64,000 nt of DNA, from positions 672,001 through 736,000 of the forward strand of contig CM000436.1 of NCBI GenBank assembly GCA_000165345.1. The letters are read 5' to 3'. How positions within the stretch are numbered: the stretch's first letter is position 1; every line of letters starts with the position of its first letter. Below the pieces are notes generated by a model. That model was not told the DNA's origin, made no database searches, and saw only the letters and a list, made by a program, of their open reading frames with translations. Positions 8,236 to 17,104 of this stretch are shown here, piece by piece. A program made the translations under genes and the position numbers.

Positions 8236-8528
8236 TTTAATGAATATTTGGATAAAAAGAGTTGAGAGTATTTAGGTTAAAATAAGGCAGTAAGAACAAG
8301 GCTTATCTGATTTTTTTAAAAAAATATTGATATACTAATAAGATTAGACTACGCTTTGGCTGAATTACAGATTAGCCAAAACTCATCAGTTGTGTAATCG
8401 TATTAATTTAAAATAAAGCTGGATCATGAAAAGGCATTGTTAAGGTCTGTATGAAGTTCTTGCTATAAAGATACTATATTTTTAGGAAAGAACACGAATA
8501 GAACATTGAGAGTACGAAAAGAGTGAAA

Positions 8529-10415
8529 ATGTCTCCTATTACATTGAAGCAATATGTTTTGCTTAGTTTCGGGCTACTTTTGGGGCTTTTTGTACATTTA
8601 TTAAGTGTATACGATTTTTACTTTTACCACATAATCATGCACATAACTATAACCAAAGCGTCCACCATGATAATTACAAATGCAGGTTTATTGACTTTAT
8701 ACTTTTTGGGTAAGGTTATTTTGAATATGTTTGTGGGAAGATTAAGAGATATTGAACTGGAAGAAATCATTGATCAAGGGCGAATGTTTTTATTAGATAC
8801 AATCTTTTTTTTGTTATTTAGTAGCCCAACAATAGATAATATAGAAGTTGGAGCAATGGTCCTTTCAAGATACATTACTCTTATTTTGGTTTTAAAGCTT
8901 TTACATTTAATTTCCCATATTCGAATTAACCACATGTTTGAATTAGACAGACCAAAAACTACTGCAATTGTTAGAATGGCAGCTTTGCTTAATATTCTCC
9001 TGATTATTGACATAAGTTTAGTTTTCAAGTATTATGGCCTATTGTCAAAAGATTCTACTCTGAGGTTGTGGGTATTTTTCGAGAGTGTTTCTTTGCTTGT
9101 TTCATGTAGCACTTCTATTGGTAAATACCTCGTTCATGTTGTAGATTTGAAGCTCCAAGCCATTCAATTATTAATGAGACAAGAGGAGGATGGAACCCCT
9201 GAACAAGGAAATACTCATTCTTCGGGAATGCAAGCTCATAACTTTGTATGGTCGAATAAGAATGCTATATTATTTTATTTGGAGGTGTTTGGCGATATAT
9301 GCTCTTTAATTACTTACCTTCTCTTCATTATTCTCTTCCTTGTGCTAAATCCTTCCAGAATTCCATTATATATTATGGGAGATATCTTCCACGTCTTAAA
9401 AGCTTTGTACAGCAAGCTATCATCATTCAGGAGATATAGAAAGCTCACAAAAAATATTGAAACCAGACTTCAGGAAGCTACACTTGAAGAGATTGAGAGA
9501 ATTGATACTTGTATTGTTTGTAGGGACACTTTGTATATTGGCTCAAAAAAGATTCCTTGCGGTCATGTATTCCATCTGGATTGTCTAAAATCTTGGTTTA
9601 TTCAACAGCAAACTTGTCCAATATGTAGGGCTCCCATAACTATCAGAGATGAAGAGCCTGAACATTCAGCAACTACTGCAGAAGAAGATAACAACTCTCC
9701 ACAAATACCAGAGGACCAGGATGAAACTAATGATATTAAAGATCCCACTTCTTCAGACCAAGCGAAACCCAACATCAATTCAGAGCCTACTAGTGCACCA
9801 TCATCTTCAGCGTTTAATTCAAATGAATCCGGGAGCTCAACTGATGTTAGCTCTGACAGTTTTAAGAAAATCTTCAAGAACTGGATAGTAAGTGAGCATA
9901 AAGCTAAACCTGTTGAAGAAACAACATCAACAAGAATGGCGAAGGACTTGAAAGAAACCAAATTTCAGATATCGAAACACCCTTTGTTTAAAAGCAAGCG
10001 TGATGACTTATATAGAAAGGTTTCAAAAGCTGCAAATAGAGGGGATCATATAAATAGCCTTCCTCCTCAGTTACTTTCACTACAACCTCAAATTTTACTA
10101 GAATTAAATAAAAATTTGGAACAGAGAACATTTGGAAGTGAATATGGAAGTCAAGAGTTTTCTGAAATGATGAGCAAAATGTATAAGAAAAATGCAGATA
10201 TTTGGTTGAATATGGTTAGCGAGCTCATCAAAGCTAAAGAACAAAATTGTATCCAACATTCGGTACCAATTGAACGAAAAAGCAGTATTCACATACAAGG
10301 AGAAAGTTTATCTAATATGTATGAAAGTAGTTCTAGGGCAGACCCCTTGAGAAATCTAATGGATGCTGTCAATAATCAGCTTAACGAAACAAAAAATATT
10401 AATAAGGCTGCTTGA
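8529..10415 (+). CDS. HRD1: HRD1/synoviolin-type ER-associated-degradation RING-H2 E3 ubiquitin ligase. It has N-terminal TM helices, a RING-H2 domain and a long low-complexity C-terminal tail.
   Basis: FLGKVILNMFVGRLR matches the Hrd1 TM1-2 motif LLGKVMGKVFFGQLR. The RING CIVCRDTLYIGSKKIPCGHVFHLDCLKSWFIQQQTCPICR is nearly identical to the Hrd1 RING, including the WFxxQQTCPxCR signature. The start is placed at ATG 8529 because the track start 8523 is GTG. Confidence 0.85.
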   Translation: MSPITLKQYVLLSFGLLLGLFVHLLSVYDFYFYHIIMHITITKASTMIITNAGLLTLYFLGKVILNMFVGRLRDIELEEIIDQGRMFLLDTIFFLLFSSPTIDNIEVGAMVLSRYITLILVLKLLHLISHIRINHMFELDRPKTTAIVRMAALLNILLIIDISLVFKYYGLLSKDSTLRLWVFFESVSLLVSCSTSIGKYLVHVVDLKLQAIQLLMRQEEDGTPEQGNTHSSGMQAHNFVWSNKNAILFYLEVFGDICSLITYLLFIILFLVLNPSRIPLYIMGDIFHVLKALYSKLSSFRRYRKLTKNIETRLQEATLEEIERIDTCIVCRDTLYIGSKKIPCGHVFHLDCLKSWFIQQQTCPICRAPITIRDEEPEHSATTAEEDNNSPQIPEDQDETNDIKDPTSSDQAKPNINSEPTSAPSSSAFNSNESGSSTDVSSDSFKKIFKNWIVSEHKAKPVEETTSTRMAKDLKETKFQISKHPLFKSKRDDLYRKVSKAANRGDHINSLPPQLLSLQPQILLELNKNLEQRTFGSEYGSQEFSEMMSKMYKKNADIWLNMVSELIKAKEQNCIQHSVPIERKSSIHIQGESLSNMYESSSRADPLRNLMDAVNNQLNETKNINKAA

Positions 10416-10508
10416 TTAATTGTAGATGAAAGTTGTGATTAGAATATTGAGATAGAGAGATATAGGTAGTTTATATTATAATATCTGAATAAAGAAGTGT
10501 ATTCATAT

Positions 10509-11726
10509 CTATATAGTTATAACGTAACCGGGGGGAAGTATATCCATTGCAAGATGGATATTACTTCCGATTACTATTGAGACCAATAGGGCAAACCAAT
10601 TAGGGTTTAGCTCAAGAGCCATTGCGAACTTTTCTTTATGTAGAGCAAGGATAAGTGCTTGAATTGCCATCTCTTTCCCTTTTGAAGAGTTATTAAGCTC
10701 AATAAGTCTTCTTGTAAGTACCGGTAATGGCTGATATTTTGCGATTGAAATGATTCCAATAAATGTGGAAGAGCACGGTAGGGTTAGCACCTTAAGAGTA
10801 TCTTGAATGAAAAGAGGAAACTTGGCTAAACTTGGATATAGATTAAATCCAATTACGGACAGATCATTAAAGCATTCTAAATCTGTTGGAGGTGAATCTG
10901 GAGAAAAAATGCTCACGTACTTTTCTGAATAGTAAAAACTATTTATTTCGTTACATATAAAATCCTTGAGAATTTTGTCGGCAGAGCATAGTGGAAGGAG
11001 CGAAACCACCTCAACCTGAGCCTCTGAGAGGTAGACTTTGGATAATCGGTTTTGATCTTGATGATCACCTCCATAATTTAGAAGAAAGTATTTAACTTCT
11101 ACATTAGGGGTTAAACTGCTTTCACTTATATCTTGAAATCTTGGAAATCCACCATTATCCAGCCTTTTGAGGCAACTAGAAGAATCCATGAGCCAGATTA
11201 CAAGTAACTGTCTTTCCTTCCCAATGTTTTGGTGCTCTTCTGTCCAATTTATATTATTTGGTCCTGGAGCACCAAAACTGTTATCAGTTCCATTCTGTAA
11301 TTCAGATCTTTCAATAATAGCACCTTCTTTGAGGAAATCGCTAAAACAATCTGGAATTGGCCTTATTTCTTGTTGATTAATACTATTTTGCACCTCTGAC
11401 TTAATTGGAAAAGAGTCCTGTTCAGTCTTAAGCTCTATATTGCTACTTGTTATTTGCTCCATCAACATATCTATAATCGTAAGCGACGGTACTAATGAAC
11501 AGCTGCCAATTGGATACCAGCTCACCTCCTTAAATCTATGGTTAGCAAAAACTAACTCCCTCTTCATTTCATCCAAGACAAAATAAACAGAAATCAAACA
11601 CTCAGAGTATTCCCTATTAAACTCATCATCTAGAAACAACCGTTTCAGTGCATCTTTGAAATACTCCAGACGCAGAATGGAGTGCTCACTATTAAAATCA
11701 ATGTCAAAAACTATTAAAATCGACAT
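10509..11726 (-). CDS. Hypothetical protein of about 405 aa. Its N-terminus (SILIVFDIDFNSE) weakly resembles a vWA/Rossmann-like beta strand.
   Basis: Long ORF. The first ATG is at 11726; the track start at 11753 is TTG. No confident family assignment was possible. Confidence 0.5.
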   Translation of the reverse strand: MSILIVFDIDFNSEHSILRLEYFKDALKRLFLDDEFNREYSECLISVYFVLDEMKRELVFANHRFKEVSWYPIGSCSLVPSLTIIDMLMEQITSSNIELKTEQDSFPIKSEVQNSINQQEIRPIPDCFSDFLKEGAIIERSELQNGTDNSFGAPGPNNINWTEEHQNIGKERQLLVIWLMDSSSCLKRLDNGGFPRFQDISESSLTPNVEVKYFLLNYGGDHQDQNRLSKVYLSEAQVEVVSLLPLCSADKILKDFICNEINSFYYSEKYVSIFSPDSPPTDLECFNDLSVIGFNLYPSLAKFPLFIQDTLKVLTLPCSSTFIGIISIAKYQPLPVLTRRLIELNNSSKGKEMAIQALILALHKEKFAMALELNPNWFALLVSIVIGSNIHLAMDILPPGYVITI

Positions 11727-11778
11727 CTTACATAAAACAAACGCTCTTAGCAAGCAAGCTTTACAAAATAAAAACTAC

Positions 11779-11823: not shown

Positions 11824-13140
11824 CTAATCAAAATAAATAGTCTCCAGCTCACTGATTATTCCCGAAACCCTATCAAATATCAGCTTTAGCTTATTACTTT
11901 TAGTTATTTCTTCGTGAAAGATGTTTTCCCTAGCCTCAATTGGAATATCTAACTTCCCAACTTTGTTGAAAATCTCTACGCCCACATTTATACAATCTGA
12001 GATCAAATTGCCTAAAATTGTCATCTGTGATACAGAACCTTCTCTAAATGTATAGACAAGGGTCCCAAACATTAAGGAGGATCTATTTTCTCCAAACTTT
12101 CTGTATGTGTGCCTGATCTTGCACTCCGTTAAAATTTTAGAAATCAGCTCGCACGGTACTCCGAGCCTTTCGCAATCAACTGAAACAAGATGTGTATCTG
12201 TTCCATCTCCAAGTAGAGGAATTCCTGAGTCAAGCATTGTCTGCGCTAGAACAGCAGAGTTATCAAGTGCTGCTGCTACAAACTCACTAGTTCGAGAAGT
12301 TAACATTCCTTGAATTTGGACAGCAAATGACCCAATTTGATGATTATGAGGGCCTCCTTGGAGGCCTGGAAATACTGCGGAGTTAACTTTCTGAAATAAT
12401 CCAGGATTTTTGCTGTTGTTCAACATCAAGAAGCCACCTTTAGGACCACCCAAACTGCTTTGAGTGTTAGAATAAATGATGTCGCAATATCTGTATGGAT
12501 TGTTGTCCTCCCTTCCATACCTATCAAATGATATCAAAAGTGCAATTTCGCTAATATCAGCGACTAAAAAGATTTTAAATTCATTGCAAATCTCACTAAG
12601 CAGTCTGTAGTCTATGAATAATGTTAATACATCGGATGGAACAAGTAACAACTTGGGCTTTAATATCTTACATTTCTCCCTCAGGTCAACTATATCAAAC
12701 CCCCTACCTTTTTTATCCAAATTATAATATTCAACTTGGTAATAATTTTCCAATACAGTGTCAGAATCACCCCTAATCCTCAAAATTCGATCCCCCTTAT
12801 TCAGTAATCCCATACAGATGGCCAACTCAGCATGGCTTCCACTATAACACTGGATATTAAATAGCCATTCGTCATTGCTTTTTTTGTCTAATTTTAGAAA
12901 TTGTTTTAATCTACTTGCGCAGAGCGTTTCTATCTTATCAATAACGTGTGTTCCACCATAATACCTTGTTCCAGGAAAACCCTCTGAATATTTGTTTGTA
13001 AGGATACTCCCAAGGACTTTTCTCGCAGCATTAATCATAACATTTTCCTTGGGGTGTAAGTTTAAATGAGAATTCTGAAAATCTTTTTCCTTATTAATAA
13101 TATTGAATAACTCTTGATCAGATTCAATTGTTGTATTCAT
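11824..13140 (-). CDS. Divergent serine hydroxymethyltransferase-like paralog. It has the SHMT fold but has lost the PLP-binding Lys and the HLTHG motif, so it is probably a pseudoenzyme or regulatory subunit.
   Basis: It conserves LTNKYSEGFPGTRYYGG (SHMT: LTNKYSEGYPGxRYYGG), NIQCYSGSHAELA (VNVQPYSGSPANLA), NSAVFPGLQGGPHNHQIG (FAVFPSLQGGPHNHAIA) and GDGTDTHLVSVD (SGGTDNHLVLVD). Where SHMT has TTTHKTLRGPR, this ORF reads SNTQSSLGGPKGG, with no HK. The GGHLTHG motif is absent. Confidence 0.7.
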   Translation of the reverse strand: MNTTIESDQELFNIINKEKDFQNSHLNLHPKENVMINAARKVLGSILTNKYSEGFPGTRYYGGTHVIDKIETLCASRLKQFLKLDKKSNDEWLFNIQCYSGSHAELAICMGLLNKGDRILRIRGDSDTVLENYYQVEYYNLDKKGRGFDIVDLREKCKILKPKLLLVPSDVLTLFIDYRLLSEICNEFKIFLVADISEIALLISFDRYGREDNNPYRYCDIIYSNTQSSLGGPKGGFLMLNNSKNPGLFQKVNSAVFPGLQGGPHNHQIGSFAVQIQGMLTSRTSEFVAAALDNSAVLAQTMLDSGIPLLGDGTDTHLVSVDCERLGVPCELISKILTECKIRHTYRKFGENRSSLMFGTLVYTFREGSVSQMTILGNLISDCINVGVEIFNKVGKLDIPIEARENIFHEEITKSNKLKLIFDRVSGIISELETIYFD

Positions 13141-13398
13141 ACCTAAATGATGACGAAATTAAGTTATTAATATCAAAGATACAGTCTGTTTAGTAATTTA
13201 TTTAAGATTCTTTTTTTTTGTTACTTATTTCTAAAAAAGTGCTCGCCCCCTTTATTTGATTAAATTTTTCCCCACATGCAAGCATGTTTAACAGTGTTAG
13301 TTTCATCGTATTTACATAAATAAAATACTTATATAAATTAATTAAAATAATGAATAATGTGGATGTAAAATAGAACCTCTTATTTTTAATTAATATAA

Positions 13399-14229
13399 TT
13401 AGAAAATGATTCTAAAAATAATTACTAATATTAGAAAAGCAGTTAAATAAAGAACTATTTTAGTTATTCTTCTCCTTCGATCTCTTTCAGAAATTACATT
13501 AATCTCGTGTAGTAGGTGAAAACTGTCTGTATTAATTTCTGTTTCCTTAATTTTATCTTGAAAAGTATCAATAGTAACTTGTTCAGAGGCAATCTCATTT
13601 AATAGAATATTCTGAATACTCATTAACTCTTTCGTGGACTCCTTTAATTTAATTAACTCTGCAAAACAATGATTGGTTAATATTGGGCAATAAATGAGTA
13701 AAATAAAACCAAACCTCTTCGTATAATAATGTCACTTACCTTGGTTTTGTTCAAATAAGAGTTGTTTTTCCAATTCTTTAAAATCTGGTAAAGGCATATA
13801 TTGGGAGGTATGGACGAAAGAAGAAACAGAAGAGACAGAGGTATTTGATAATGAATTCTTTTCTAATTGGTTTCTTAAACAATTATCAACTTCATATCTT
13901 TCTAAGGAGAAAATAGTCTGAAAATGAAATAATAGATTCTCAAATAACAGTTTATAATGAGGATTTATATTGTTTTCCTTTTCCAATAACATAATACAGT
14001 ACTTAAAAAGATGTTGAGTTTCTTTAATTTTGAGATCTCTCTCAATATAACAACTTTCATTGTTTAATGAGTTAATATTTTCTCCAAAGTTTAATTCTTT
14101 CAAGTAATCTATATTTTCCTTAACCTGCTTAAAACATTTGCAAACGATTTCGTCCATTCCTTCTTTAATTAGAGTACTTTTGAAATTTTCAAAGTCACTT
14201 TTCAATGACAAGCAATTACCATAATTCAT
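13399..14229 (-). CDS. Tail-anchored Q-SNARE (syntaxin-like) of about 249 aa. It is encoded in two exons (14229..13740 and 13658..13399) separated by an 81-nt intron (13739..13659).
   Basis: On the minus strand the sequence reads ...caaaaccaaG|GTAAGTGAC...GTTTTGCAG|AGTTAATT. The donor follows 1 base after codon CAA. G+AG restores the frame, so the 165-aa and 74-aa track ORFs join in frame. Exon 2 encodes a heptad SNARE motif with a zero-layer Gln (ASEQVTIDTF). This is followed by RDRRRR and a C-terminal TM (ITKIVLYLTAFLILVIIF) that ends the protein. Confidence 0.6.
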
Positions 14230-14520
14230 TTCACAATTTAGATTTAGAGTAGTTCTTTTATTAATTACTTAAAGAATTTATTGCATTTTATTTCTTGTTT
14301 AATTTAATTATGAGTAATATAGCAATCTCTCCAAACATTCAAACTCTCCAATTCTGACTATCAGGTTTAAACACATACAAAATAGCCTGAAGGATTTCTA
14401 AAGTCTAAACTTGAATAACTTATCTAACTTAATCAGATTTTAACTTTTCTGACTTTTTCACTGGCTATCCATGTATTTTGTGAGGTACAGATAAATTTTG
14501 CGAGCTTAGAAAATGATGCT

Positions 14521-14530
14521 TTGGCGCCAA
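14521..14530. promoter_or_regulatory. Perfect palindromic E2F-like site TTGGCGCCAA, about 290 bp upstream of the SNARE gene start and about 340 bp upstream of the 14871 gene.
   Basis: Direct reading: gatgctTTGGCGCCAAtcgc. Confidence 0.4.
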
Positions 14531-14870
14531 TCGCTTTGCTAATACTGCATTTAGGAGTTGAAAAATTAAATAGTTAAAATTATTTAGACAAGAGCCTGTT
14601 GTTGAAGCTGAAAGGTATTTGATTATCTTAGACCGAATTTTCCTTTTCGTTCCTCTACAAATTACTGGAATAATAAGTCTGCATGCAATTTACATCTTTT
14701 GCGGGAACTGAAAGCAAAATTGTAGAAAAACAAAATTTACTGCTAAAAATAAGAATTAAACAAACTTCTCATTTTAAAGCACTAAAAGAATCAAATAGAG
14801 CGAACTGACCTACATAAATGTGTGTGCTTATTTATGAACCCCGAGTTTGAAAATCTATAAAATTAATCTT

Positions 14871-15290
14871 ATGGAAACAATGCAAAATTGGGAAATTATA
14901 GACGACTACGATATTGAGAAGGAAAATGAAAAGGTTAAAAATAGTGATATCTTATCAGATTTACTAAGTGATTATGAACTTGACAACAGCTTTATGAAAA
15001 AGGATATTAATCAGCAGCTTGAGGAAATTAATATATTGATTAAAGAAGTTAATCAAGAAAAGGTAGAATTATTGAATTCATTTCCATCTTGTTCATTAGC
15101 AATTATTAAGAGCTTAACCAGAGGTGATGAAATTGATGAAGAAAATATGGAGATTGATCAGATGTCACTCTCAAGCAGCGAGATCAACTCTAGCAATGAT
15201 TCACCTTTGTTTGAAACACGAGTAAATATCGACCTGCATCAGAGTCTTACGGACTCTCCAGGAAGCATGAATATATCAGACTTTCTTTAG
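14871..15290 (+). CDS. Small acidic hypothetical protein of about 139 aa.
   Basis: ORF with its first ATG at 14871; the track start at 14847 is TTG. The protein is Asp/Glu/Ser/Asn-rich with no recognisable domain. It may be a spurious ORF. Confidence 0.3.
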   Translation: METMQNWEIIDDYDIEKENEKVKNSDILSDLLSDYELDNSFMKKDINQQLEEINILIKEVNQEKVELLNSFPSCSLAIIKSLTRGDEIDEENMEIDQMSLSSSEINSSNDSPLFETRVNIDLHQSLTDSPGSMNISDFL

Positions 15291-15358
15291 CCATGAAAAA
15301 AATGTAAATATTCAAAAGAAAGAAATTAACAATTCACAAACGAGAGTAAGCAAACGCA

Positions 15359-16696
15359 CTAATACTTATCTACGATAGAAACAAATTCAAACGATGAGGC
15401 AAACTTTCGCACTGTTTGCCTGATATTCTCTATTGCTGGAGAGGCCTTAATATTAGAAACAAACTCTGCAAGAGTCTCCCCATCCTTTTGAATATCTCGA
15501 GCAGTAGTTAAAACTTCTACAATTATCCTTGAAACGAATTTGAAATCATCCAACTCCATCCCTCTGCTCGCAAGGGCTGCAGTTCCAAGTCTGACGCCAC
15601 TGCAATTCATAGTTCTCCCATCACAAGGTAAAGAACTTCTACTTGTTGAAATTTCGCATACTTCTAGTGCTTTCTCAGCCTTAGCCCCAGAAATGTTCAA
15701 TGATCTTGTATCTATTAGAATTTTGTGGGAATCAGTTCCATTTGTAAGAATCTTGATTCCAGACTCCTCGAGCAATTTGCAAAGCAATTGAGAGCTTTCT
15801 AGCACTCTACTTGCATATTTAACCCAAGAAGCAGAAACTACTTGTTTCAGTTGGAAACAAAGGGCTGCAACTTGGTTGAAATGAATACTAGACTGAATTT
15901 CTTTAGAAACTGACTCATCAATCTTAACTCTGATCTTGGACTCTACGTCCTTTCTGTAAAATATTATTGCTGACCTTGGTCCTCTTAATGTCTTGTGAGA
16001 CGTTGTTGTAATGAAATCTGCGTAGTCTTTGGGTGACGGGTACTTCCCTGCAACCACCAAACCAGAGTAGTGAGCGATATCTACCATCAGGTAGGCCTTC
16101 ACTTTGTCGCAGATATCCCTAAACCTCTTAAAGTTGATCATTCTAGGATACCCACTAGCTCCTGCTATTATCATCTTTGGTCTAAATAGTATTGCATTTT
16201 CTTCCAACTTATCGTAATCTATCACTCCTTCTAAATCAGTTACATAAGGGAGTGACTCAAAATAGTGAGATGAACAGTTAACTCTCTTCAAATTTGTATA
16301 GTGTCCGTGAGTCAGGTGGCCTCCATGTTGTAATGACAATCCCATTATTCTATCATTAGGTTTTAATACTGCATTTAATACTGCAAAATTTGCAGGAGAG
16401 CCACTATGAGGCTTTACATTAGCACCCCATACTTCAGGATCTAGTCCATATGCTTTTAAGGCTCTTTCATTTGTGAGCTCTAATAGTTCTTGTGCAGAAG
16501 TTGAGTTTAATTCCATATTTTTATCATTATTAAACATTGAGAATGTACTTGACAAGCTGTCCAAGACTCCCTTCGATACAAAGTTTTCGGATGCTATCAT
16601 TTCTAGTCCATTAATCTGTCTATCATATTCTTCATTGATTAGCTCATACATAATGGGATCCAGCTCTTTTAATGATTTTTCCTGTAAAAATACCAT
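15359..16696 (-). CDS. SHMT: Serine hydroxymethyltransferase, a canonical PLP-dependent enzyme.
   Basis: All SHMT hallmarks are present: LEMIASENFVS, GGHLTHGHYT, VDIAHYSGLVVAG, TTTSHKTLRGPRSAIIF containing the Schiff-base Lys, and GTDSHKILIDTR. It starts with ATG at 16696. Confidence 0.9.
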   Translation of the reverse strand: MVFLQEKSLKELDPIMYELINEEYDRQINGLEMIASENFVSKGVLDSLSSTFSMFNNDKNMELNSTSAQELLELTNERALKAYGLDPEVWGANVKPHSGSPANFAVLNAVLKPNDRIMGLSLQHGGHLTHGHYTNLKRVNCSSHYFESLPYVTDLEGVIDYDKLEENAILFRPKMIIAGASGYPRMINFKRFRDICDKVKAYLMVDIAHYSGLVVAGKYPSPKDYADFITTTSHKTLRGPRSAIIFYRKDVESKIRVKIDESVSKEIQSSIHFNQVAALCFQLKQVVSASWVKYASRVLESSQLLCKLLEESGIKILTNGTDSHKILIDTRSLNISGAKAEKALEVCEISTSRSSLPCDGRTMNCSGVRLGTAALASRGMELDDFKFVSRIIVEVLTTARDIQKDGETLAEFVSNIKASPAIENIRQTVRKFASSFEFVSIVDKY

Positions 16697-17104
16697 TTCT
16701 TAAGTGATTATTTATTACAGTTCTGTATTACACGGTCTTTATATTCCTAAATCTTTAGTAGCTTCACAAATTTTTATTTCTAGCGTTTAAACAAAGCTAT
16801 ATTCGAATTTCAACTTTGTTTTTTATATTTTGGTAATTGTGTTCAATTATTAAACTTTTTTGTCCAAATAAAGTACATGCGCCATGTGTGGGTAATTTAT
16901 CAGTAAATCGTTGAATGAATGCTAACCCAGAAATTTTTCTAATTTATAAAAATATTATTCTCTAAAAATTACTATGATCTCTGAATAAATTTCGCTCTTT
17001 AGATTTCTCAAGATAACTAGGACAGTACTAATCTACCAAAGATAGAATTTTATTACAAATCAATTATTATTGTCCTACTAGAAAAACCGGAAATGTATTG
17101 AAAA

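Follow-up and report, generated by a model that had tools for sequence, protein, structure and literature searches.

Reciprocal loss of active-site residues in two serine hydroxymethyltransferase genes of Cryptosporidium parvum suggests a split-site heterodimer

Introduction

Among the enzymes that depend on pyridoxal 5′-phosphate (PLP), serine hydroxymethyltransferase (SHMT) ranks with the best conserved and the best studied. It is regarded as a homo-oligomer whose subunits are all complete. The present analysis concerns two genes with the SHMT fold, here called A and B, that lie near each other in Cryptosporidium parvum, within a window of 64,000 nucleotides (assembly GCA_000165345.1, contig CM000436.1, positions 672,001 to 736,000 of the forward strand; all coordinates below are counted from the first letter of this window). 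The residues that make up an SHMT active site are divided between the two genes, and their products would probably act together as a single heterodimeric enzyme.

The division has to be seen against the architecture of the family. SHMT is an obligate dimer with both active sites at the subunit interface, each of them built from residues of both subunits (PMC7916883). In Escherichia coli GlyA, the PLP and substrate site takes Ser35, Gly98, Ser99, His126, Ser175, Asp200, His203, Thr226, His228, Lys229, Arg235 and Arg363 from one monomer (cis) and Tyr55, Glu57, Tyr65 and Gly263 from the other (trans), and the folate site combines Leu121, Gly125, Leu127 and Asn347 of one monomer with Glu57 and Tyr64 of the other (PMC7916883). 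The glutamate equivalent to Glu57 is regarded as the universal acid-base catalyst of the family, and in the Thermus thermophilus enzyme the equivalent of Tyr65 is marked as belonging to the other protomer (PMC11323337).

Several described systems, most of them from parasitic protists, combine an impaired paralogue with a partner. The PfSHMTm paralogue of Plasmodium falciparum is inactive and lacks 16 of the 21 active-site residues, PfSHMTc, which is complete, works by itself, and a hetero-oligomer of the two has been proposed in the form of a (c)2(m)2 tetramer of homodimers (PMC3014972). Trypanosomatid deoxyhypusine synthase (DHS) is encoded by the paralogues DHSc and DHSp, which are not competent alone (Nguyen 2013, PMC3663545); their heterodimer is reported to hold one functional and one dead site and to work by shared active-site complementation (Afanador 2018, cited in PMC7581365). 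For serine palmitoyltransferase, only LCB2 has the PLP lysine and LCB1 supplies residues predicted to act in catalysis, with a single active site per LCB1/LCB2 (SPTLC1/SPTLC2) heterodimer as the working hypothesis (PMC3794620). Finally, S-adenosylmethionine decarboxylase (AdoMetDC) of Trypanosoma brucei has a dead paralogue, the prozyme, that is needed for the activity of its partner and acts allosterically, by relief of autoinhibition (PMC5201418). A literature search found no description of a split-site arrangement in any SHMT, nor of a Cryptosporidium SHMT heterodimer or pseudoenzyme; the matches that combined Cryptosporidium with SHMT concerned the SHMT2 of the host.

Complementary active-site residues in A and B

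The two genes are located as follows:

11824..13140, minus strand: gene A, an uninterrupted open reading frame (ORF) of 438 aa (EAK89612.1 / CPATCC_004084)
15359..16696, minus strand: gene B, an uninterrupted ORF of 445 aa (EAK89448.1 / CPATCC_004087)

Protein B matches the C. parvum Iowa II entry EAK89448.1 at 100% identity. Both proteins match Pfam family PF00464 above its cut-off of 27 bits, A with 252 bits over profile positions 3-372 of 399 and B with 409 bits over positions 1-399 of 399. The genes are separated by 2,219 bp, and they share only 23% identity at the protein level, so that the duplicate is not recent.

For residue scoring, the cis set was defined as the 16 residues of the subunit that carries the PLP lysine and the trans set as the five residues of its partner, in E. 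coli GlyA numbering; the GlyA reference sequence was confirmed to be identical to chain A of PDB 1DFO. In an alignment of 243 sequences, 219 of them other SHMTs, A retains 3/16 cis and 5/5 trans residues, and B retains 15/16 cis and 0/5 trans residues. The complete set of 21 is kept in 212 of the 219 other SHMTs. The cis/trans split gave p=0.003 for A and p=0.0003 for B in a Fisher test. Asn347 is the only one of the 21 residues that is absent from both proteins; taken together, A and B cover 20/21 canonical active-site positions, with Ser (Ser354) in place of Asn347.

A second test, independent of the residue list, was based on the 103 alignment columns that are at least 95% conserved in the 219 canonical SHMTs. 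Both proteins keep 29 of these columns, B only keeps 37, A only keeps 22 and neither keeps 6 (odds ratio 0.21, Fisher p=0.003). The columns kept in A only cluster at E. coli positions 53-75 and 257-264, which are both of the segments that reach into the partner's site. When the window was translated in six frames, each hallmark motif turned up once: those of the cis side lie in B, those of the trans side in A. Since B is without all of the residues donated to a partner's site, the pair is reciprocal (‘half plus half’) and is not an enzyme with a dead partner.

Three segments of A bear on this:

12952..13002, minus strand: A residues 47-63, LTNKYSEGFPGTRYYGG, with Tyr51, Glu53, Tyr60 and Tyr61 equivalent to E. 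coli Tyr55, Glu57, Tyr64 and Tyr65
12331..12375, minus strand: A residues 256-270, VFPGLQGGPHNHQIG, the trans loop (E. coli 256-270) with Gly262/Gly263
12433..12471, minus strand: A residues 224-236, SNTQSSLGGPKGG, the former TTTHK-LxGPR segment (TTTHKTLRGPR elsewhere)

In a canonical SHMT, the four Tyr and Glu residues of the first segment are supplied to the PLP and folate site of the partner, and the equivalent of the 256-270 loop closes the partner's PLP phosphate pocket; its FPGLQGGPHNH motif is intact in A. The third segment belongs to the cis side, and here Thr226 has become Asn, His228 Gln, Lys229 Ser (Ser228 in A) and Arg235 Lys, TTTHK thus reading SNTQSS. Furthermore, the GGHLTHG loop is deleted, His203 is replaced by Glu and the carboxylate-binding Arg363 by Met, and the cis half of the folate pocket (Leu121, Gly125, Leu127, Asn347) is deleted or replaced. 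Asp195, the aspartate that contacts N1 of PLP, is kept. Without the Schiff-base lysine, A's own site cannot form a PLP Schiff base.

The corresponding segments of B show the opposite pattern:

16304..16324, minus strand: B residues 125-131, GGHLTHG, in which His127 stacks on PLP; Leu122/Gly126/Leu128 belong to the folate pocket
16061..16084, minus strand: B residues 205-212, VDIAHYSG, in which Asp206 contacts PLP N1 and His209 contacts O3′
15974..16009, minus strand: B residues 230-241, TTTSHKTLRGPR, containing TTTSHK with the Schiff-base Lys235, and also Thr232, His234 and Arg241
15581..15601, minus strand: B residues 366-372, SGVRLGT, in which Arg369 binds the substrate carboxylate
16499..16549, minus strand: B residues 50-66, STFSMFNNDKNMELNST, a degenerate remnant of the NKYxEGYPGxRYYGG trans motif
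15872..15910, minus strand: B residues 263-275, VSKEIQSSIHFNQ, a degenerate remnant of the FPxxQGGPHN trans loop

In the first of the two remnants, Tyr55, Glu57, Tyr64 and Tyr65 are gone and the segment is four residues shorter; in the second, SKEIQSSIHFN stands where FPxxQGGPHN is expected, and Gly263 is gone. With these five residues missing, a B:B dimer would be without the acid-base Glu, the substrate Tyr and part of the phosphate pocket.

The original prediction, made from the letters of the window alone, had described two SHMT-fold genes 2.2 kb apart on the same strand, and had seen that A is without the PLP lysine, the HLTHG loop and the stacking His while it keeps the scaffold around LTNKYSEGFPGTRYYGG and GGPHNH. 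All of this agrees with the spacing, the Pfam matches and the alignment. It had also taken B for a canonical SHMT with every catalytic hallmark. The three motifs on which that judgement relied (GGHLTHG, VDIAHYSG and TTTSHK) are present, but a trans score of 0/5 means that B is not canonical.

Conservation, selection and fold

The pattern of A is found in all of the A orthologues that were retrieved (C. tyzzeri, chipmunk genotype I, C. ubiquitum, C. canis, C. bovis and C. muris), and the B pattern recurs in orthologues that range from C. felis to C. andersoni. The order of the genes (B, small genes, A, a 400-aa gene, a Hrd1-like E3 ligase) is the same in five related genomes, namely C. muris, C. 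bovis, chipmunk genotype I, C. ubiquitum and C. canis. Because both pattern and gene order are conserved across the sampled species of the genus, C. muris included, the split arrangement predates the radiation of the genus. A canonical third Cryptosporidium SHMT was absent from the best 120 matches to A or B.

Both genes are under strong constraint. The A ORF is intact throughout; it measures 447 aa in C. muris and 438 aa in each of the five species of the intestinal clade that were compared. For C. parvum against chipmunk genotype I, the ratio of nonsynonymous to synonymous substitution rates (dN/dS) comes to 0.079 in A and 0.083 in B, both below the 0.126 and 0.160 of two flanking genes, and across the unsaturated comparisons it is 0.05-0.10 for A. 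Within the A family, 117 positions are invariant across the genus, and constraint is strongest in the trans segments (76% invariant vs 27-28% elsewhere). Specifically, 16/21 positions of the Tyr/Glu segment are invariant vs 27% elsewhere (p=9e-6), as are 13/17 positions of the Gly262/263 loop (p=7e-5). The B family is the mirror image: its cis segments are 80-94% invariant, and its trans-equivalent segments 24-29% vs 50% elsewhere, with 5/21 positions invariant in the segment around STFSMFNNDKNMELNST. Judged from these alignments, A is a maintained protein in which selection keeps exactly the part that is predicted to act on a partner.

AlphaFold2 gave an SHMT fold for both proteins. The model of A has a mean predicted local distance difference test score (pLDDT) of 92.3 and a predicted template modelling score (pTM) of 0.92, and Foldseek matched it to P. 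vivax SHMT (4oyt) with a template modelling (TM) score of 0.89. The model of B reaches pLDDT 87.8 and pTM 0.88, and its low-confidence spots are the trans remnants (pLDDT 64 at residues 50-66 and 55 at 263-275) and the 131-144 flap.

A B-like protein of C. serpentis (559 aa; L089:9842-11521, JBHPOL010000098.1) stands apart from the other orthologues. It has Met (ATG) at the position of the Schiff-base lysine, and differs further by Ser35Ala, by Ser99Thr and by ~100 aa inserted in the region of the trans loop. Its 17-kb contig contains no copy of A and is not syntenic with C. muris, and is too short to judge whether A is present. The change from Lys229 to Met could mean that the pathway was lost, or could stem from an error in the gene model or in the sequencing.

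A similar pair on a bacterial contig

A search of the A-family profile against 1.84 billion representative proteins returned a few other SHMT homologues that are without the lysine and keep all or nearly all of the trans residues. One protein, P0379, is encoded on a bacterial metagenome contig of 104 kb and 36.8% GC (L007; ENA ERZ26050963 contig_3), where it lies directly downstream of a second SHMT gene, with a gap of at most 5 nt or an overlap (8766-10010 and 10001-11185, spanning 8766-11185), and the two adjoin rpiB. The upstream SHMT has 16/16 cis residues and destroyed trans motifs (LFNSRNEVPYNKEQD; AV-NSIQDDTFTQ). The downstream one has 5/5 trans residues, with NKYAEGYPFKRYYGG and FPGLQGGP, and 1/16 cis residues. 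Both are of the bacterial GlyA type, with 50% and 40% identity to E. coli GlyA and 32% between the two. The pair therefore looks like a separate origin of the same split, that is, convergence, and its operon-like layout implies co-expression. As for relatives, P0379 was a singleton in the homologue search, and a scan of prokaryotic genomes gave only ordinary glyA genes at 33-42% identity.

Other sequences without the lysine were seen as well. An AT-rich, eukaryote-like contig (L008:1417-2742, Logan SRR32380747) encodes a lysine-less SHMT with 3/16 cis and 5/5 trans residues and a presequence-like N-terminus, and in two Papaver proteins (P0276 and P0280) Lys229 is replaced by Arg, the loop is deleted and 4/5 trans residues are present.

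A proposed split-site heterodimer

The most likely explanation of these patterns, to which we give a probability of roughly 0.7, is that one enzyme is built from A and B as its two subunits, an obligate A:B dimer with SHMT activity. B has kept the cis residues and lost the trans residues, A has done the reverse, and hence only A:B would hold a complete site, with none in A:A or B:B. In the proposed composite site, B would contribute Lys235 with its PLP, His127, Asp206, His209 and Arg369, and A would contribute Tyr51, Glu53, Tyr60, Tyr61 and Gly263. This site, with 20/21 residues, would bind PLP on Lys235 of B and run the SHMT reaction, and the reciprocal site, made of the cis side of A and the trans side of B, would be dead. 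The heterodimer would supply 5,10-methylene-tetrahydrofolate (methylene-THF) to DHFR-TS (dihydrofolate reductase-thymidylate synthase). A tetramer of homodimers such as that proposed for Plasmodium would rebuild no site.

We infer the physical heterodimerisation, the competence of the composite site and the inactivity of either homodimer from the distribution of residues. Indirect support for a heteromer in the cell may be drawn from the conserved linkage of the two genes, their equal selective constraint, a promoter motif that they share (see below) and the operonic bacterial analogue. The databases label B ‘cytosolic serine hydroxymethyl transferase’ and A ‘mitochondrial serine hydroxymethyl transferase’. 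In the alignment neither protein extends beyond GlyA at the N-terminus, and A begins later than GlyA; both are therefore plausibly cytosolic and could meet there. By this evidence, the public names are without support in the sequences and are misleading.

A number of observations weigh against the heterodimer. Asn345, Asn347 and Pro359 of the folate loop are gone from both proteins, a change that alters the binding of folate by the composite site and might impair it. An Asp occupies the Glu57 position in all B orthologues, and a B:B dimer may have residual chemistry. If the ‘mitochondrial’ label of A were right, targeting to the mitosome would break the model. In C. serpentis the B-like protein carries Met where Lys229 is expected. 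That a third canonical SHMT is absent was judged from top-120 lists and falls short of whole-genome proof, and the bacterial pair comes from one contig, for which the databases searched gave no close relatives. The fuller claim, namely that Cryptosporidium has no SHMT other than an obligate heterodimer, in which two paralogues have degenerated reciprocally and one site is composite and the other dead, and that the arrangement had an independent origin in a bacterium, is favoured at somewhat better than even odds.

Alternative explanations

The alternative that survives best, unlikely as it is, holds that neither A, nor B, nor the two together are still a tetrahydrofolate (THF)-dependent SHMT, and that they run another PLP reaction (a THF-independent aldolase or a transaldolase) or have a non-catalytic role. 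Cryptosporidium would then depend on salvage through thymidine kinase. Such a drift in function would account for the loss of the NKN folate motif (Asn345, Asn347) and of Pro359 from both proteins; SHMT-like families with altered trans residues do exist, for example those with threonine-transaldolase-like ‘TEYHT’ patterns, and the C. serpentis protein without Lys229 points the same way. However, the heterodimer would have 20/21 residues available, including the folate-specific Glu57, Tyr64, Leu121, Gly125 and Leu127, and both genes are under strong purifying selection. Moreover, DHFR-TS in Cryptosporidium needs a source of methylene-THF.

It is also improbable, and by a little the less probable of the two, that B is a self-sufficient homodimeric SHMT and A a dead accessory, that is, a regulator or an RNA or folate binder comparable to PfSHMTm or the AdoMetDC prozyme. 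Dead paralogues with regulatory roles are known in parasites (PMC3014972, PMC5201418), B has all of the PLP-contacting cis motifs, A is without the lysine, and B has a conserved Asp at the Glu57 position. Nevertheless, the five trans residues are gone from B and would be missing from a B:B site, and this explanation offers no reason for invariant trans residues in A beside its own ruined site. Its supposed analogue does not help either, as PfSHMTm has lost both cis and trans motifs in the published alignment; the analogy with PfSHMTm was dropped on this ground.

The original prediction leaned towards this second alternative when it suggested that A might be a regulatory or heteromerising subunit. 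The heteromerising part was in the right direction, but the picture of an enzyme plus a dead partner fails because B is itself without the trans set. A role for A alone in binding RNA or folate is not borne out, its own cis folate pocket being deleted or replaced, and the likeness to the Plasmodium paralogue proved superficial, with both motif sets lost from PfSHMTm and PfSHMTc complete. Its view of A as a retained protein was sound: despite the loss of the catalytic lysine and the GGHLTHG loop, the possibility that a duplication left A behind as a decaying pseudogene is effectively refuted by the intact ORF, the dN/dS of 0.05-0.10, the confident fold model and the 117 genus-wide invariant positions.

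Origin of the pair

In a neighbour-joining tree with 200 bootstraps, the A clade and the B clade were each recovered in 200/200 replicates, and A and B were sisters in 1/200. Both sit on long branches, within a weak (59%) clade that also holds AT-rich metagenome sequences, and this grouping is likely to reflect long-branch or compositional attraction. The metagenome SHMTs in question (L006 and the contig of P0075) are on large, gene-dense contigs with ORFans, a GIY-YIG nuclease and glycosyltransferases, and these contigs have the look of SHMT-bearing giant-virus genomes.

The conserved linkage would fit an ancient duplication in the stem of Cryptosporidium with reciprocal loss thereafter, and would also fit the recruitment of two older paralogues. 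A recent tandem duplication is ruled out by the 23% identity together with the conservation across the genus. The tandem arrangement, local duplication and neofunctionalisation of the original prediction therefore need revision on each count: two genes intervene, and the arrangement is not strictly tandem; the split predates the genus and the tree does not join A with B, so that a local duplication is not shown; and the residues indicate complementary degeneration, a subfunctionalisation of one active site.

A candidate shared promoter element

A GC-rich pattern, CATGTG(N0-2)GGG, has two matches in the window, one upstream of A and one upstream of B, in opposite orientations:

13270-13278, minus strand: CATGTGGGG, 130 nt upstream of the ATG of A, a candidate cis-element
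16883-16892, plus strand: CATGTGTGGG, 187 nt upstream of the ATG of B, inside the conserved block CCCACACATGGCGCATG

The pattern was defined post hoc, and the number of matches expected by chance is 0.27. Both copies are kept in chipmunk genotype I, C. ubiquitum and C. canis. An element common to both promoters hints at co-regulation of A and B.

Neighbouring genes

Between A and B lie a two-exon gene of 249 aa on the same strand and an ORF of 147 aa on the opposite strand, for which orthologous genes are annotated in related species. A Pfam scan of these two intervening genes gave no matches. The features in question, together with the genes downstream of A, are:

13399-14229, minus strand: two-exon gene (exon 1 at 13740-14229, exon 2 at 13399-13658)
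13659-13739, minus strand: intron of the 249-aa gene, 81 nt, GTAAGT...TTGCAG
8523-10415, plus strand, and 10509-11753, minus strand: the two genes downstream of A, a 400-aa gene and, beyond it, a Hrd1/synoviolin-type RING E3 ligase

The 249-aa protein has a C-terminal transmembrane anchor (it is tail-anchored), a layout that we take, as an impression only, to be loosely SNARE-like, and its orthologues of 249-279 aa occupy the same position in other species. On the far side of A, the E3 ligase has the domains TPR_SYVN1_N and zf-RING_2, and the conserved 400-aa gene has no Pfam match. This downstream neighbourhood is kept from C. parvum to C. muris.

Implications

If the proposal is correct, the pair would be the first natural split-site SHMT, and would show complementary degeneration, a form of constructive neutral evolution, within a single active site. 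Taken with its bacterial counterpart, it suggests that reciprocal loss can lock a homodimer with shared sites into a heterodimer, and it offers a testable example of subfunctionalisation at a single catalytic centre. There would be practical consequences as well: (i) the Cryptosporidium ‘cytosolic SHMT’ should be inactive when expressed alone, (ii) the pocket for folate and inhibitors, at which the antimalarial pyrazolopyran SHMT inhibitors are aimed, would be assembled from two gene products, with Ser in place of Asn347, and (iii) the geometry of the drug target would be specific to the parasite.

Comparison with known systems

With canonical homodimeric or homotetrameric SHMT (GlyA, 1DFO; human SHMT1/2; Plasmodium SHMTc, 4o6z/4oyt), A and B share the fold, the Pfam family and, as a pair, the 21-residue active-site set apart from Asn347. 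The difference lies in the allocation of residues: the canonical enzyme has all 21 in each subunit and two sites per dimer, whereas in A and B the set is divided and one site per dimer is proposed. P. falciparum is similar in outline, as an apicomplexan with two SHMT-fold genes of which one is without the PLP lysine. There, however, a fully dead paralogue stands beside a full enzyme, while A keeps all of the trans residues and B is itself incomplete. The T. brucei prozyme donates no active-site residues, unlike what is proposed for A.

In mechanism, two systems come closest, serine palmitoyltransferase and trypanosomatid DHS. Serine palmitoyltransferase is a fold-type I PLP enzyme descended from homodimeric bacterial enzymes, and its LCB1/LCB2 pair resembles A and B in having one subunit with the PLP lysine and another that is without it but contributes residues. 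In contrast to A and B, it belongs to the alpha-oxoamine synthase family, sits in the membrane, includes extra small subunits and occurs in all eukaryotes. The trypanosomatid DHSc/DHSp pair is similar in that it consists of two paralogues with sites at their interface, again in a parasitic protist. DHS differs in being an NAD-dependent enzyme of the Rossmann type whose DHSc subunit is weakly active alone, and its arrangement was demonstrated by biochemistry and crystallography, whereas that of A and B is deduced from sequence only.

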